Below, in pieces: positions 15,398 through 26,692 of a stretch of 45,700 nucleotides of DNA; within the stretch, counting starts at the first letter, position 1, and each line of letters starts with the position of its first letter. This DNA is from a virus (Duplodnaviria; Heunggongvirae; Uroviricota; Caudoviricetes), in the IMG/VR virus record IMGVR_UViG_2563366840_000010, positions 1 to 45,700 of that record. One strand, written 5' to 3'. The notes beneath the pieces were generated by a model, which made no database searches, was not told the DNA's origin, and was given only the letters and a program-made list of their open reading frames with translations. The translations under genes and the position numbers were made by a program.

Positions 15398-16176
15398 ACC
15401 TTGAAAACACAGTGAAATACCACTTCGCTAAATCCACACTGATTAGCGATTCTCCGCGCGCTACCGCCTCCGATTCACTGACCGGTACCGACATAATGGC
15501 TGCCATGGGCATGACGCAGGAACGCGCCGCAATGGGTTACAGCGCCTTCCTCGGCAAGATGGGCATAAGCAATAACGACCGGGATCGGGCGATCGGTCTG
15601 CTGGCTGAGTACGCGATGACAAAATGCGACAAGGTTGCCGCACTGCGTAAGCTCGGTGCCGCGGTTAAACCTCAGGTGATGCACCAGTTGGCCACCTTCG
15701 CTTTTGAGGACTATTCCCGCAGCGCTGCCAGCGTGAAGCAGTGCGATTGTTGTGACGGTCAGGGCTTCATTGAGGCTGACGTGTTTACCAATAAATTCCG
15801 TAAGCCAGAAGGGAGAATGACCGTGTCCGGGATGGTGAAGGTCAAAGAATCCATCAAAGTGCTATGCAAAAAGTGTAATGGCTCTGGTGTGGTTAGTGCT
15901 TCTTGCAGTGATTGCCATGGGCGCGGCAAGGCAGTGAACCAGGCTCTTACTGAGAAACAGGGCGTTCCTGTTCTGGCTGACTGTAAGCGCTGCGGAGGGC
16001 GTGGGTATGAACGACTTCCGTCGACTGAAGCCTATGCTGCTGTATGCCAGATTACTGACGCCATTAGCCTGGACACCTGGAAAAAGTCTGTTAAGCCATT
16101 CTACGACCTGCTGATCACGAAATTTGATATCGAAGAGTCCTGGGCCGAAAAACAGCTTAAGCAGATAACGCGGTAA
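15394..16176 (+). CDS. Q: late antiterminator Q, lambda-Q family (260 aa)
   Basis: SDSPRATASDSLTGTDIMAAMGM matches lambda Q; zinc-finger CxxC pairs; followed by a pR'/qut-like sequence. Confidence 0.85.
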   Translation: MNLENTVKYHFAKSTLISDSPRATASDSLTGTDIMAAMGMTQERAAMGYSAFLGKMGISNNDRDRAIGLLAEYAMTKCDKVAALRKLGAAVKPQVMHQLATFAFEDYSRSAASVKQCDCCDGQGFIEADVFTNKFRKPEGRMTVSGMVKVKESIKVLCKKCNGSGVVSASCSDCHGRGKAVNQALTEKQGVPVLADCKRCGGRGYERLPSTEAYAAVCQITDAISLDTWKKSVKPFYDLLITKFDIEESWAEKQLKQITR

Positions 16177-16224
16177 CGCCTATAGCGATAGCCTATGATT
16201 TTGTCTTGGGCTATTTACTTTTCC

Positions 16225-16300
16225 CGAATCTGTGTTAATTTTGTCCCAACGATGGGTTAATTCGCTCGTTGTGGTAGTGAGATAAAAAGAGGCGGCGCTT
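16225..16300 (+). promoter_or_regulatory. late promoter pR' / qut-like region
   Basis: caacgatgggttaattcgctcgttgtggtagtgagat... appears near-identical to the lambda pR'-qut sequence as I recall it. Confidence 0.5.
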
Positions 16301-19192: not shown

Positions 19193-19454
19193 ATAATGTC
19201 CGTTGACATTGTTAGGGTGATTCTCATTTAACAACCTCAACTGCTACATTACAGTGCTTCATCATGCAATTAGCTTTTTCACCAATGGCTTAGATCCAGT
19301 GAAAGTTACTGACGTTATCTAATGACAAGATGAACGTAGCTTTTGTGTAGTTTTTCAGCGAATAGGATTATCTGAATTTAGCATTTTTGGCTTGTATAAA
19401 CTGTGGGTAAGTAGCTATAGTCACGTCATAGATAGTATTTTTGCATCTTTTTCA

Positions 19455-19480
19455 AGCCTCTTTTGAGGCTTTTTGCACAT
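19455..19480 (+). terminator. hairpin AAGCCTC-tttt-GAGGCTT + TTTTG
   Basis: Seen directly, ~260 bp after Rz. Confidence 0.4.
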
Positions 19481-19562
19481 TTAAATATGACAACAATGGC
19501 ACATATAGTATGTCCCCCTTGGCACAGGCACTATATGTAGCGCTATAAAAGGAGCTATCATT

Positions 19563-19763
19563 ATGACCCCAGCTGAGTTCTACGATGTTTACAATATCAA
19601 ACCGGCAGAAATGTTGACTGGTGAAACTGTTAACAACTTCGCTTCTCGTGTAATGGCACAGCAAACTAGTACGAGTGGAAACACAGGTGTTTGGTACTCA
19701 CAAGGTACCGCTACACAATCGAAGCAAAACCAAACTACAAGTCATCAACTTTACACGTACTGA
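19563..19763 (+). CDS. hypothetical small protein (66 aa), first gene of an AT-rich two-gene cassette
   Basis: AAAGGAG RBS; Q/T/S-rich C-terminus. Confidence 0.6.
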   Translation: MTPAEFYDVYNIKPAEMLTGETVNNFASRVMAQQTSTSGNTGVWYSQGTATQSKQNQTTSHQLYTY

Positions 19764-19766
19764 TTT

Positions 19767-20669
19767 ATGCCTAATTGGAGCGACGTACTGGGCGAGATAA
19801 CGGCTCTCGCCCATAAAAGTCCTATGGATGAGGTTCGCCGTAAATACTTATCTCAACTTTCGAATCATACTGGAAGAAATGTAATCACATATTACTCAGG
19901 GTGGTTACAGCATGGTGGTGCAGAAGTACGCCATCTTACTCAGATGACTGATGATGATAAGAACGGGTTGATGACAGCCATCAATGGTTTAGATGTATCA
20001 AAAGGGTTGGATTTGATACTTCATACTCCAGGTGGTGATATTGCCGCTTTGGAATCAATCGGGCATTACTTAAGGTCGAAGTTTGGAACTAACATCAGAG
20101 CAATTGTTCCTATGATTTCAATGTCCTGCGGAACTATGCTTGCATGTTGTGCCAATGAAATCATCATGGGTAAACAGTCCAACATTGGCCCAATTGATCC
20201 TCAGTTCAACGGTTTCTCCACCCATGCCATCATTGAAGAATGGAATCGTGCGCAGACGGAAATTTTTCAAAATCCCGCAGCTGTTCAGATGTGGCAGTTC
20301 ATTCTTCAAAAGCTAAACCCGACGATCATCGGCGAGTGTGAGAAAGCAATCAAATGGGCAAATGAGATTGTTAAGCATTGGCTTATGACAGGCATGTTTG
20401 ATAATGATCCTGAGGCAGAATCAAAAGCAACACATGTTTGTTCAGAGTTAAACAACCATCACACAACCTATACCCACTCGCGTCATATTCATTTTGATAA
20501 GGCGCAGAAAATTGGGTTGAATGTTACCGAACTTGAAAGTGATCAAGTACTTCAAGATTTGGTTTTGACTATACATCACAGCTACATGCATTCTTTTGGT
20601 GGAGCACCACTGGCAAAAATCATTGAAAATCATAACGGTAACGCAATGATTTGGAATATCCAGTCTTAA
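19767..20669 (+). CDS. ClpP/S49-fold (SDH-type) serine peptidase-like protein (300 aa)
   Basis: LHTPGGDIAALESIGHYL and SMSCGTMLACCANEI segments resemble ClpP/SppA-fold peptidases; start 3 nt after the upstream stop. Confidence 0.65.
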   Translation: MPNWSDVLGEITALAHKSPMDEVRRKYLSQLSNHTGRNVITYYSGWLQHGGAEVRHLTQMTDDDKNGLMTAINGLDVSKGLDLILHTPGGDIAALESIGHYLRSKFGTNIRAIVPMISMSCGTMLACCANEIIMGKQSNIGPIDPQFNGFSTHAIIEEWNRAQTEIFQNPAAVQMWQFILQKLNPTIIGECEKAIKWANEIVKHWLMTGMFDNDPEAESKATHVCSELNNHHTTYTHSRHIHFDKAQKIGLNVTELESDQVLQDLVLTIHHSYMHSFGGAPLAKIIENHNGNAMIWNIQS

Positions 20670-22560: not shown

Positions 22561-22614
22561 TGTCAACTTTATGAGCAAACTGATCTTAATTACTGTAACT
22601 AGGTGGTCAATGAT

Positions 22615-23253
22615 ATGGCAACGCTTAAGGACCTTTCCAGTCAGTTAAGACAGCTGCAGAAGCAAATACCGTTTGCGACTGCCCAGGCTATGACTAAAGT
22701 GGTTCGCCAGATAGAAGCGGCCCAAAAAACAGCATTTGAGCGGAATCTGGATAATCCAACACCTTTTACAGTTAAATCGGTTGGGTCAGTTGGTGCCAGG
22801 AAAAACAGCCTTCGTGCGAAGGTGTTTGTTCGTGATACTGCTGCTGGTTACCTTGAACCCTTCGAGTTCGGCGGAGAGCACAAGCTTAATGGAAGTGCTT
22901 TGCTTAACCCGAAAGACATAAAGCTTAATAAATACGGCAACCTGCCGCGTAATAAGCTCTCACAGCTTAAAGCAAAGGAAAATGTATTCGTAGGTGAGGT
23001 TGATGGCGTTAACGCTGTCTGGCAGCGTAAGAAGCCGATGAAAGCTAAGAAGCGACGGGCCAAACGTTCCGCTAACGGGACGCGAAGACCGAAACGCAAA
23101 CAGCGTTCTCCAAAGCTTTTGATCCGGTTTGGTGATGCGCTACCTGTGACTCCAGTGCTGGGGTATATGGATAGGGCCCGTACCATGGCGAACGCACTGC
23201 TACCGTCTGCTTTAAATCAGGCGATAGCAGAAGCCATCAGGACGGCAAAATAA
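22615..23253 (+). CDS. hypothetical phage protein, basic C-terminal region (212 aa from ATG; ORF opens at 22603)
   Basis: AGGTGG RBS before ATG 22615. Confidence 0.5.
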   Translation: MATLKDLSSQLRQLQKQIPFATAQAMTKVVRQIEAAQKTAFERNLDNPTPFTVKSVGSVGARKNSLRAKVFVRDTAAGYLEPFEFGGEHKLNGSALLNPKDIKLNKYGNLPRNKLSQLKAKENVFVGEVDGVNAVWQRKKPMKAKKRRAKRSANGTRRPKRKQRSPKLLIRFGDALPVTPVLGYMDRARTMANALLPSALNQAIAEAIRTAK

Positions 23254-23263
23254 AAGCAGTAAC

Positions 23264-23767
23264 TTATAAGTTAATTTCGCAAGCTTTTATGAAGCTGTTT
23301 ACTGCAGTTGTCGATCCAGAAACATTGGCTGACATGGAATGCTGGTTTCCGCCATCCTTTGTTTGCACACCAACTAACACTTTGGATTTCGCCCCCTGAA
23401 GCTGCTTAAGCACTGTTTTTAGTTGGTCCGCGTCATCCGATTGAATCTGGAGGCTCTGAACATTACGTCTTGAAAGGGTAGCATCGAGCTTCACTGCGGT
23501 ATTCCCGTCGACCTTCATTATCAGGTCCATTGGTACCTCTGATAGTGATTCGGTGCTTTTATCCATTTCAACGTATGCCGCCGATAGCTTTTCTTTAGTG
23601 CAGTCAAACACAATGGCGCCATTGTCGGATGAAACCTCGCCAAGCATCATTGCTTTCTTACCACCAGAGAAAAGGTCATCTTCAGTATTAGTTACCCACT
23701 GGGCATGAGCAATTGGTGATGCCAGCACTGCGGCTACGAAAGTTATTTTGATTATATTGTTACCCAT
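23264..23767 (-). CDS. secreted hypothetical protein with signal peptide (167 aa)
   Basis: MGNNIIKITFVAAVLASPIAHA-QW signal peptide; AGGAGA RBS; opposite strand to the late operon. Confidence 0.6.
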   Translation of the reverse strand: MGNNIIKITFVAAVLASPIAHAQWVTNTEDDLFSGGKKAMMLGEVSSDNGAIVFDCTKEKLSAAYVEMDKSTESLSEVPMDLIMKVDGNTAVKLDATLSRRNVQSLQIQSDDADQLKTVLKQLQGAKSKVLVGVQTKDGGNQHSMSANVSGSTTAVNSFIKACEINL

Positions 23768-23910
23768 TACATTCTCCTTGTATTGAATAGGAATAATCAT
23801 AGTCGGAGCGAATGGTCGAAGCCATTAAAAAAATGGGTCCTTCCTGAGACTTTTGTAAGGTACGGGCATTGCGCGCCGCGGTGTTTTCCTAGCTACAACT
23901 TTCAGATTTG

Positions 23911-24058
23911 TGTCCCATGTCCCACCTCTGGCGATCATTACGGACACCTCGCCAGCTCTGGCTATTCCAGTTTATTCCAGTGGGACATTCTGGTGGGACA
24001 TGGCAAAAATGTCCCAGGCGAATGTCCCACCCCAGAAAATGTCCCAGGTGATGTCCCA
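23911..24058. repeat. array of eight ATGTCCCA-type heptamer repeats (six direct, two inverted) upstream of the small terminase gene; candidate cosB-like sites
   Basis: TGTCCCA at 23911, 23919, 24010, 24023, 24039, 24052; TGGGACA at 23981, 23994. Confidence 0.5.
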
Positions 24059-24627
24059 TGACCACGATGAACCAGAGTCAGTACGCACAACATTCAGGTG
24101 TGGATCGCAAAACAATTGGCCGGTGGATTAAAGCCGGGCGCTTCATTGTGATGGACGGAGACCTGATTGACGTAGAGGCCAGCGATGCGGCATTGAAGAA
24201 AAACCGCGATGGCAAAGACCCGCGCGCCTCGAACGCGAAGAAAAAGAAAACTCCCGTCGTTAGCGATAACGATGATGACGGTGATGAAATCAATAAAACT
24301 GTCCGCCAGATAATGCTCACTGAAGGGGCAGATCTTTCGAGAGAGGAAGCGGGACGTATCCGCGAGAATTACATGGCCCTGCAGGCAAAGCTGCAGTATG
24401 AAAAAGACAGCGGCCAGCTTATTGAGCTGACAGCAGCCGAGGAGGTTTTATTCAACGCCTTTCGCCAACAGCGTGATGCCTGGCTTAACTGGCCGTCCAG
24501 GGTGGCGCCGCTAATGGCTGCTGATCTGGATGTACCGGCGGACAGGATGACAGAGGTGCTGATTGAACATGTCCACAAACACATCTCAGTCCTCGGAGAG
24601 CCAGAGTTTAACCCGGCAGAAGATTGA
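24058..24627 (+). CDS. terminase small subunit, Nu1-like (189 aa)
   Basis: N-terminal HTH (RKTIGRWIKAG) and position before the gpA-like large subunit. Confidence 0.7.
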   Translation: MTTMNQSQYAQHSGVDRKTIGRWIKAGRFIVMDGDLIDVEASDAALKKNRDGKDPRASNAKKKKTPVVSDNDDDGDEINKTVRQIMLTEGADLSREEAGRIRENYMALQAKLQYEKDSGQLIELTAAEEVLFNAFRQQRDAWLNWPSRVAPLMAADLDVPADRMTEVLIEHVHKHISVLGEPEFNPAED

Positions 24628-26692
24628 GCGTCTTGAATTAAGCGTCCGCAAAGGCTGGACACCCCCGCCGCGTATCAGTGTGCCGCAGTGGGCAGATGAC
24701 TATCGTAAGCTGGCAAAAGAGGCTGGGAGCACTTCGGGAAACTGGGAAACATCGACGGTAGAAATTGCCCGCGGACCGATGCTTGCCGCGACGGAGTCCG
24801 GGGTTCATATCATCACTGTAATGTGCTGTACCCAGTTGATGAAGACAGCACTGCTGGAAAACCTTTTTGGCTATTTTGCCCACCTCGATCCTTGTCCGAT
24901 ACTGCTGCTGCAGCCGAAAGAAGAAGCCGCTGAACAGTTTTCGAAAGAGCGTATTAGCCCGCTGGTAAGGGTGACGCCGGTACTGCGTAAAATCATCGGT
25001 GATTCGAAACAGAAAAGCTCGAAAGAAACCATTCTTTACAAGGCATTCACTGGCGGATTTCTGGCGCTGGCGGGTGCTGGTAGCCCTGATAACCTTGCGC
25101 GTCGTCCGATTCGTGTCCTGCTGGCGGATGAAGTGGACAAGTACCCGATAACCCGCGAAGGCGATCCAATTGCGCTGGCCGAAGAGCGTACAGCGACATT
25201 TGGCCTGACCTGGCTGTCTGTACGCGCCTGTTCGCCGACGGTGGAGGATGAGAGCCGCATTGCTGACAGCTACGCCGACTCCGATCAGCGCCGGGCATCT
25301 GTGGTTTGCCCGCACTGTGGCCACCGCCAGTTCCCCGACTTTTTCAAACACGTTCAGTGGCCGAAAGAGGGAGATAAACACCTGACTAAATCGGCGATGC
25401 TCTATTGCGAATGCTGTGGTAGTGGCTGGTCCGAAGGACAGCGCCTCAGAGCTCTGCACACTATTCGATGGCATCAGACGCGCCCATTTGAGTGCTGCGG
25501 GGAGCGGCACTCACCGCTGATGGATTATGACCTTGCCTGGCGGGCGGCAGACGAGGGCAGCGTTGAAAAGGTCTGGCAATGGTCAGAGTCGGAACGGCAT
25601 GCGGTCTATCGCGCAATCTGCCCCTCCTGTGGAAAGGAGGCAGTCGATAACCACCACGCGGGGTACCAGGCATCCAAGCTTTTCAGCCCCTGGCAAAAAG
25701 ATAAGCCGTCGGATATTGCGAAAAAATATATCGATGCGAAGGGCGATCCGGATAAGGAACAGGCGTGGTGGAATACCCAGATGGGGCTTCCGCACCGACC
25801 TAATCATGGGAAACAGCTCCCTGTTGATGTTCTGCTGGCGCGCCGGGAAATATTTCCGGCCGTCGTTCCGGACGGGGTGGCATTGTTAACAGCTGGAGTT
25901 GATACCCAGGACGATCGCTTCGAAATTACGATCACCGGCTGGGGGAGAGATGAAGAATCGTGGTCGGTCGCGCATGACGTTATTTATGGTGACCTTGAGA
26001 CGGAAGAACCCTGGAAGCGACTGGATGCATACCTGAAACAGATCTGGCGACGTGGTGACGGGCGCGGCCTGAATATCATGGCAACGTGCATGGACTCCGG
26101 CGGCCACCATACGCAGAAGGTATACGAATTCGCCAAAGAGCGTCTTGGCCGTCGTGTCTGGGCAATTAAGGGGGAGTCTGCACAGGGAGGCAAACGCAAT
26201 CCTGTCTGGCCGACCAAACGACCATCATCGAAAAGCAAAGCCAGTTTCCGCCCTGTCATTCTGGGGGTTAACTCAGCGAAAGACGTGATACGCGGTCGCC
26301 TGCATCTTGAGCCACCCAAACCTGGCGCCGCCGCTGCGGGTTATATGCATTTTCCTGACGATCGCGATCTCGGGTACTTCAATCAGCTGCTGGCGGAGCG
26401 ACTGGTTTACAAAGTCATTTCCGGGCAGCGGTACAGTATCTGGGAAGCAATACCAGGACGAGCTAACGAAGCGCTTGACTGCCTCGTTTACAGCTATGCC
26501 GCGCTGTGCGGTCTCAAACATATGGGGTTAAAACTCAACGTCCGGGCCGCCAACCTCGAAGCCGATCCGGATAAGTTCCTGCCAGCGCCAGTTGGACAGG
26601 AAGAAAAAATCAATTACGAGCTGCCGGGTGCGGTTATTGAAGAACCAGCGCCGGTCAAACGTAAGCGAATATCGCAACTCCTGCCGAAATAA
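24563..26692 (+). CDS. terminase large subunit, lambda gpA family (709 aa)
   Basis: N-terminus MNMSTNT..VPQWADDYRKL parallels lambda A; CPHCGHRQF zinc-finger region. Confidence 0.9.
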   Translation: MNMSTNTSQSSESQSLTRQKIERLELSVRKGWTPPPRISVPQWADDYRKLAKEAGSTSGNWETSTVEIARGPMLAATESGVHIITVMCCTQLMKTALLENLFGYFAHLDPCPILLLQPKEEAAEQFSKERISPLVRVTPVLRKIIGDSKQKSSKETILYKAFTGGFLALAGAGSPDNLARRPIRVLLADEVDKYPITREGDPIALAEERTATFGLTWLSVRACSPTVEDESRIADSYADSDQRRASVVCPHCGHRQFPDFFKHVQWPKEGDKHLTKSAMLYCECCGSGWSEGQRLRALHTIRWHQTRPFECCGERHSPLMDYDLAWRAADEGSVEKVWQWSESERHAVYRAICPSCGKEAVDNHHAGYQASKLFSPWQKDKPSDIAKKYIDAKGDPDKEQAWWNTQMGLPHRPNHGKQLPVDVLLARREIFPAVVPDGVALLTAGVDTQDDRFEITITGWGRDEESWSVAHDVIYGDLETEEPWKRLDAYLKQIWRRGDGRGLNIMATCMDSGGHHTQKVYEFAKERLGRRVWAIKGESAQGGKRNPVWPTKRPSSKSKASFRPVILGVNSAKDVIRGRLHLEPPKPGAAAAGYMHFPDDRDLGYFNQLLAERLVYKVISGQRYSIWEAIPGRANEALDCLVYSYAALCGLKHMGLKLNVRAANLEADPDKFLPAPVGQEEKINYELPGAVIEEPAPVKRKRISQLLPK

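Follow-up and report, generated by a model that had tools for sequence, protein, structure and literature searches.

A probable lambda-type cos region with a TGTCCCA heptamer array as predicted small-terminase binding sites in a temperate Escherichia coli myovirus prophage

The DNA analyzed here, a stretch of 45,700 nucleotides hereafter called the window, is a temperate prophage of E. coli, a myovirus whose head and packaging genes are of the lambda type. Its early genes are lambdoid, its head module is lambda-type and its tail is contractile and Mu-like. In the 1-kb region compared, the window was 100% identical to a prophage of E. coli L6-21, accession NZ_CP123963, and related sequence was detected in 59 of 5,426 complete E. 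coli genomes. The small terminase TerS (189 aa) is encoded at 24058..24627 on the + strand and was assigned to PHROG 57 (E 4.6e-36). The end of its gene is overlapped by that of the large terminase TerL (24569..26692, + strand), a protein of the gpA family according to Pfam (GpA_ATPase, 2.8e-64; GpA_nuclease, 2.2e-78) and to the PGAP annotation. On the left side, a divergent gene (23264..23767, - strand) encodes a 167-aa product with a signal-peptide-like N-terminus, which belongs to PHROG 19473, function unassigned. In Pfam, no match was obtained for this product or for the product of 22603-23253. Further upstream, about 4 kb before the cos described below, the Q antiterminator gene is separated from the lysis genes by a tRNA-Asn gene and an HNH endonuclease gene (15732-16267 of the related locus L001, approximately 19431-19966 of the window). 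In HK97-type phages, cos cleavage is assisted by HNH proteins; with a gpA-type TerL, no HNH protein is expected to be needed.

Upstream of the TerS gene, we observed a dense array of the sequence TGTCCCA. An exact match search of the 45.7-kb window gave 11 matches, 8 of which lie inside 23911-24058 (148 bp), six on the + strand (starts at 23911, 23918, 24010, 24023, 24040 and 24052) and two on the - strand (23981-23987 and 23994-24000). The base located 5' of the heptamer is an A in seven of the eight copies (ATGTCCCA) and a G in the first one (GTGTCCCA). The unit of the array is a 7-mer core, TGTCCCA, with a preferred 5' A. The total number of matches across the window is unremarkable (11 for 5.6 expected, with 11 or more in 2 of 100 shuffles). 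As regards their clustering, the maximum was three matches per 148-bp span, seen twice, when the window was simulated 2000 times with a first-order Markov model. When all 7-mers were considered, TGTCCCA formed the densest cluster of the real window, with 8 copies compared to 3-5 in 60 simulations. These results confirm an earlier note on this DNA, which had reported eight heptamers in both orientations upstream of the small terminase gene. The same note gave ATGTCCCA as the heptamer: the repeats are indeed present, but this sequence is an octamer and the length has to be corrected to the 7-mer core. An independent repeat search found the identical heptamer copies as well as a dyad with arms at 23980-24001 and 24009-24030.

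We numbered the copies H1 to H8 from left to right. H1 and H2 (23911..23924, + strand) form a tandem pair, TGTCCCATGTCCCA, with a 7-bp period. H3 and H4 (23981..24000, - strand, reading TGGGACA on the + strand) are inverted and 13 bp apart, and H5-H8 are four direct copies (24010..24058, + strand). The dyad is formed by H5/H6 with H3/H4. The Shine-Dalgarno sequence AGGTGA is flanked by H7 and H8, and H8 overlaps the start codon of TerS, its last base (24058) being the A of that ATG.

At the left of the array, the 12-mer GCATTGCGCGCC (23866..23877) ends shortly before H1, the first heptamer being located 34 bp to its right. This 12-mer and its flanks (CGG...GCG) are identical to the left cohesive end of the Serratia phage vB_SspM_BZS1 (BZS1), at the annotated start of the BZS1 record. 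According to the available passages of the BZS1 paper, this end was obtained with PhageTerm on virion reads and confirmed by comparing the phage-end sequences with a PCR product across the joined cos of the prophage (PMC7556043); these passages contain no mention of cosB or of repeats. We therefore predict, from this identity with the BZS1 cosL overhang, a 12-nt 5' cohesive end at 23866..23877, with a register uncertain by 1 nt, since the alignment with lambda predicts the stagger GGCATTGCGCGC (23865-23876) and the BZS1 paper reports GCATTGCGCGCC (23866-23877). A cosQ-like element, GGGTCCTTCC (23835..23844, + strand), starts 31 nt before the cohesive-end 12-mer and is conserved as GGGTCC[T/C]TCC in all related loci. 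BZS1 and the Citrobacter phage phiNP share with the window the identical 12-nt end, the cosQ-like element, the spacer and, at the place of H1 and H2, a pair of tandem heptamers, but they have GGTAACAGGTAACA where the window has TGTCCCATGTCCCA. Their heptamer is GGTAACA and is found in only three copies, all direct, the third just before the TerS ATG. Compared to these two phages, the TerS of the window is approximately 33% identical and its TerL 48%. As a separate observation, a 13,890-bp metagenomic viral contig (L095, IMGVR_UViG_3300037466_000051) starts, at its positions 1-13, exactly at GGCATTGCGCGCC, which is the predicted nick site. This start fits with the physical DNA end of a relative, the search pattern itself having required the leading G.

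Separating cosN from the first heptamer is a spacer, GCGGTGTTTTCCTAGCTACAACTTTCAGATTTG (23878..23910, + strand), which occupies the position of the lambda I2 segment and is kept across heptamer classes. It resembles lambda bp 13-45 (CGCGGGTTTTCGCTA...) and contains the palindromic CTAGCTA; in representative loci, it sets the first heptamer at +46 to +48. This spacer may be the counterpart of the lambda I2 segment, which is needed for termination. Between H2 and H3, a 56-bp spacer (23925..23980) stands at the position of lambda I1. A phylogenetic footprint based on an alignment of 19 distinct window-type sequences shows that cosQ, cosN and the heptamers are kept, that the inter-heptamer spacers diverge and that the 56-bp spacer is mostly variable. 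While the rest of this spacer diverges, TTATTCC..TTTATTCCAG is kept in all window-type cosB variants and carries no IHF consensus. It includes a direct repeat of TATTCCAGT with a 10-bp period (23963-23971 and 23973-23981), just before the inverted heptamers. The IHF consensus WATCARNNNNTTR, with at most one mismatch, was absent from 23925-23980 and from the corresponding spacer of the Klebsiella locus L245, a consensus scan being a weak test; the sole IHF-like match lies at 23896-23908 (- strand), with one mismatch, and is at chance level. The 56-bp spacer also contains a 7-bp inverted repeat, CTGGCGA...TCGCCAG (23928-23934 / 23949-23955). The surrounding sequence diverges, but the GATC (Dam site) at 23932-23935 is kept in 18 of the 19 sequences of the footprint.

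In TerS, a winged helix-turn-helix (wHTH) domain covers approximately residues 1-50 (nt 24058-24207) at the N-terminus; a disordered linker connects it to the C-terminal half, which is helical and conserved. The AlphaFold model, with a mean pLDDT of 67.5 and approximately 75 over residues 1-50 (moderate confidence), presents a strand-helix-helix-wing-helix domain, a disordered linker (residues 53-75) and then helices. In this model, the predicted N-terminal wHTH matches the fold of the gpNu1 DNA-binding domain, the next matches being Xis-type excisionases and BldC. Searches with the TerS sequence gave only noise and no significant match in the PDB, no Pfam family at E <= 0.01, hence no Phage_Nu1 match, and a weak match to PHROG 66 ("excisionase and transcriptional regulator"). 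The TerS gene had been called Nu1-like in the earlier note, and this description holds for its position and for the modelled fold, but not for membership of Pfam Phage_Nu1. Using hhalign, TerS residues 4-61 aligned with residues 3-61 of lambda Nu1 (E 0.0036, with a probability of only 9%). This alignment pairs G21 and K25 of the window protein with lambda residues 20 and 24, which are known specificity determinants of Nu1 (PMC4669245), and neither G21 nor K25 is kept in the GGTAACA class.

To define this class and the others, we searched for the cosN core (a 15-mer) in viral contigs and in genomes, one for each species, and used the cosQ-like element and TerL as filters. Before filtering, approximately half of the matches in viral contigs, and many of those in genome contigs, were chance matches in GC-rich genomes. 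After filtering, 66 distinct loci were obtained from Enterobacterales, Pseudomonas, Burkholderiales, Chromobacterium and others, with cosQ, cosN and the spacer common to all. In 66 of 66 distinct loci, a short repeated motif begins at a distance of 45-49 nt, counted from the first base of the cohesive end, and in every class two copies of the class-specific motif, in tandem or nearly so, stand at the position of H1/H2. The motif varies with the helix-turn-helix of TerS: TGTCCCA is found with GV[DN]RKTI.RW, GGTAACA with GVSRKTVT.WK.RGW, GGTTTCA with GVSHTAV.KW, TTCACAC with GMSRR.FYNWE, TTGACAC with GMSRQALY.WE, GTTCGCA with NCSDTLVRRA and GTCCGCA with GCDEKQVRRA. Over the 66 loci, the TerS N-termini had an average identity of 0.78 when the two loci of a pair had the same motif and of 0.36 when their motifs differed, and the few "different" pairs of high identity appear, from their motif labels, to be register-shifted names of one motif. 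This co-variation could be partly due to linkage, since the motif and the TerS N-domain are adjacent and inherited as one block. In a distant search with the cos core, BZS1 and phiNP were the only carriers of this cos among 50,697 deposited phage records, in which no match to 23700-24700 was obtained with megablast. The cos family is widespread, yet among isolated phages it is represented only by BZS1 and phiNP. In the literature searched, the TGTCCCA cosB and the wider cos family are not described beyond the BZS1 paper.

The number of motif copies and the distance to TerS distinguish a short cosB (BZS1, L073, L081), with 2-3 copies and TerS at +55 to +80, from a long cosB (L245, L141, L210, L138, L202), with 6-10 copies and TerS at +190 to +286. 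For GGTAACA, the short form has 3 copies with TerS at +75 (BZS1) and the long form has 8 copies with TerS at +197 to +211 (L245, L141); the GTTCGCA class has 2 copies versus approximately 10. For TGTCCCA, the sampled loci are all of the long form, with 5-9 copies. Short and long forms of cosB recur independently in several specificity classes. Since BZS1 is viable with three heptamers, the eight copies of the window may not all be needed. Two loci have an unexpected origin. A window-type cos with TGTCCCA, and with a TerL 87% identical to that of the E. coli prophage, is present in NZ_JBQPOM010000071.1 ("Vagococcus sp. WN89Y", L145), labelled as a Firmicute, which is probably a contaminated or mislabelled assembly. 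The same cos/TerS module, with three copies of GGTAACA, is carried by an annotated plasmid of Rouxiella badensis (pSP2, CP114059.1, 116,582 bp, L242), which could be a phage-plasmid or a plasmid with an integrated prophage.

A natural swap between two classes was observed in the Klebsiella locus L245. Its TerL protein is 90% identical to that of the window; for TerS, the identity reaches 81% at residues 91-189 but only 50% at residues 1-50, where L245 has a BZS1-like N-domain. The cosB of L245 is composed of GGTAACA in the layout of the window, with 2 direct, 2 inverted and 4 direct copies. At the DNA level, the identity between L245 and the window was 80% at cosN, 30-48% over 23927-24303 (cosB, TerS N-domain and linker) and 86-96% from 24420, and the genes upstream of cos keep 60-83% identity across the class swap. 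This pattern of DNA identity indicates that the heptamers go with the TerS N-domain, and neither with TerL or the C-terminus of TerS nor with the upstream genes.

Taken together, these results make it very probable that 23835-24058 is a cos in the lambda order, in which the eight TGTCCCA copies constitute cosB and are the predicted sites of the wHTH of the TerS encoded just downstream. The region can be considered as a lambda-type cos because it is collinear with the cos of lambda. A resemblance of the repeats to the R sites of lambda cosB had been suggested in the earlier note, and this suggestion is strengthened by the adjoining 12-mer identical to the mapped BZS1 end, by the collinearity with lambda, by the co-variation of heptamer and TerS together with the L245 swap, and by the gpNu1-like fold of the model. 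The locus is thus a known type of element with a previously undescribed recognition sequence, and it reveals no new kind of mechanism.

Recognition of the heptamers by a protein other than TerS, such as a host nucleoid protein, a phage packaging accessory factor or a satellite-type redirecting protein, seems improbable. A precedent is given by the Rpp proteins of PICI satellites, which are non-TerS wHTH proteins able to read cosB (PMC6739421), and the conserved TATTCCAGT pair indicates that at least one other element of the spacer has no known reader. However, a host factor leaves unexplained the existence of at least seven motif classes in related hosts and the swap between E. coli and Klebsiella with a near-identical TerL. 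Moreover, the swapped block ends within the TerS gene at the boundary between linker and C-domain, as expected if the TerS N-domain reads the heptamers.

We consider it slightly less probable again that the heptamers are operators for a transcription factor, acting on the divergent gene (23264-23767, - strand) or on late read-through into the terminase genes. Such a function would suit intergenic repeats located between divergently oriented genes, with H7 and H8 on both sides of the ribosome-binding site and start codon of TerS, and the Xis/MerR-type wHTH proteins, structural neighbours of the TerS N-domain, are often regulators. The weak match of TerS to PHROG 66 can be added to these points. 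By contrast, a scan of 23200-24300 detected no sigma-70-like promoter or terminator, and cosQ and cosN separate the repeats from the divergent gene, at approximately 145 bp or more from its start. The repeats are also kept in relatives with or without a divergent gene: L245 has a gene at the same place and in the same orientation, whereas L244 and BZS1 have same-strand genes instead. In these results, the regulation of the divergent secreted-protein gene, which the earlier note had proposed as an alternative, finds no support. In addition, the register of the motif is fixed to cosN (+45 to +49) and not to any promoter, and only the TerS N-domain was seen to co-vary with the motif, the upstream genes keeping the 60-83% DNA identity mentioned above across the swap. 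Finally, cleavage at cos would put the divergent gene and the repeats at opposite ends of the virion chromosome.

A purely structural role of the inverted copies, as a cruciform or as a hairpin, of RNA or DNA, in the terminase mRNA 5' leader, has in our opinion a close to negligible probability. The dyad arms are 22 nt long and the predicted RNA structure of 23900-24075, in which H3/H4 pair with H5/H6, has an energy of -59.7 kcal/mol (z = -2.74), but such a fold arises from any inverted repeat. H1, H2, H7 and H8 are outside the hairpin and yet have the same sequence, and the short cosB of BZS1 and phiNP has direct copies only. Furthermore, an inverted copy is mutated in L015 (TGGGAAA) and in L059 (TGGGGCA) without a compensating change in the partner, and conservation tracks the heptamer sequence and not the pairing. 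Replication iterons and integrase or Xis arm sites were rejected on account of the position in the packaging module at a fixed cosN register, the repeat length and the co-variation with TerS.

If the heptamers are the cosB sites of TerS, a sequence of events can be proposed by analogy with lambda. The TerS N-domains would bind the cosN-proximal pair H1/H2 and the distal array H3-H8, which probably folds back across the 56-bp spacer. The C-terminal half of TerS would place the gpA-type TerL on cosN, approximately 34 bp away, and TerL would nick both strands, at the positions predicted for this phage, to generate 12-nt 5' cohesive ends. The terminase would then stay on the cosB-bearing left end, and packaging would presumably proceed rightward with the TerS gene entering first, until cosQ and cosN of the next cos bring about termination. 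Packaging specificity would be set by the heptamer sequence, and cosB and the TerS N-domain would constitute an exchangeable cassette, bordered on one side by the conserved cosQ/cosN and on the other by the conserved C-terminus of TerS and by TerL. As for the divergent gene at 23264-23767, it would be found at the far right of the virion chromosome, in the manner of a bor-type moron of lambda.

A bolder hypothesis, which we regard as tentative and rather doubtful, is that the TerS N-domains polymerise head to tail on the 7-bp sites (periods of 7 bp and 12-13 bp), in the manner of Xis and BldC, and wrap cosB without IHF, instead of a TerS dimer bridging an IHF-bent hairpin. It also supposes that cosB and the TerS N-domain form a freely exchangeable cassette, with at least seven "codes" on a single cosQ/cosN/TerL chassis across Proteobacteria. 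The wHTH proteins of the Xis/BldC type do bind short direct-repeat arrays head to tail, but they act in recombination or transcription and not in packaging; head-to-tail oligomerisation of the window TerS is only a possibility. If true, this hypothesis would provide a ready-made toolkit for orthogonal, programmable cos packaging.

The cos proposed here would show where packaging starts and where the virion ends probably lie in a prophage type that is present in E. coli at the frequency given above and in many other Proteobacteria, and would indicate to annotators where to linearise these genomes. It would extend the picture of cosB-TerS specificity drawn from lambda, 21 and N15 to a large and almost unstudied cos family, with at least seven classes, short and long forms of cosB and natural cassette swaps. 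The pairs of motif and recognition helix could be used to study TerS-DNA recognition, which is hard in vitro for lambda, and they represent candidate orthogonal cos/TerS pairs for cosmid or transduction tools.

The elements of the window can be compared one by one with those of lambda. The lambda sequence GGGTCCTTTCC starts 30 nt before the cohesive end and the window GGGTCCTTCC 31 nt before; the two align and share the core GGGTCCTT. In lambda, this position is that of cosQ. The cosQ site has been described as a conserved 7-bp site (PMC4669245). On the right flank of cosN, lambda CGCGGGTTTTCGCTA and window GCGGTGTTTTCCTAGCTA have GCGG.GTTTTC.CTA in common. The cohesive ends are unrelated (GCATTGCGCGCC in the window versus GGGCGGCGACCT in lambda), with 5/12 identical positions in the BZS1 register and 3/12 in the lambda-aligned register. 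The first TerS site is found at +51 in lambda (R3 core CGTTTCC) and at +46 in the window, the start codon of the small terminase at +191 for lambda Nu1 and at +193 for the window TerS, and TerL is of the gpA type in both. The order R3-I1-R2-R1 of lambda cosB has its counterparts in H1-H2, equivalent to R3 by position, the 56-bp spacer, H3-H4, the positional equivalent of the inverted R2, so that both cos have an inverted middle block, and H5-H8, which stand where R1 is located. The differences concern the sites and the proteins. Lambda cosB has three 16-bp R sites, whereas the window has eight 7-bp sites arranged in pairs, the proximal one being a tandem pair with a 7-bp period. Lambda has I1, while no IHF site was recognisable in the window by consensus scan. 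The window TerS, unlike gpNu1, is not a member of Pfam Phage_Nu1.

The relation between heptamer classes parallels that between lambda and phage 21 (and N15), which have cosQ and cosN in common but differ in their cosB R sequences, each matched to the recognition helix of its TerS. In agreement with this parallel, the TerS differences between heptamer classes fall at positions homologous to residues 20 and 24 of lambda Nu1. Three specificity classes are discussed in PMC4669245, compared to at least seven in the cos family of the window, as judged from the co-variation of motif and TerS. Overall, the distinction between the "simple" cosB of N15 and the "complex" cosB of Monarch and lambda (PMC4669245) is mirrored here by the short and long forms that occur within one heptamer specificity.
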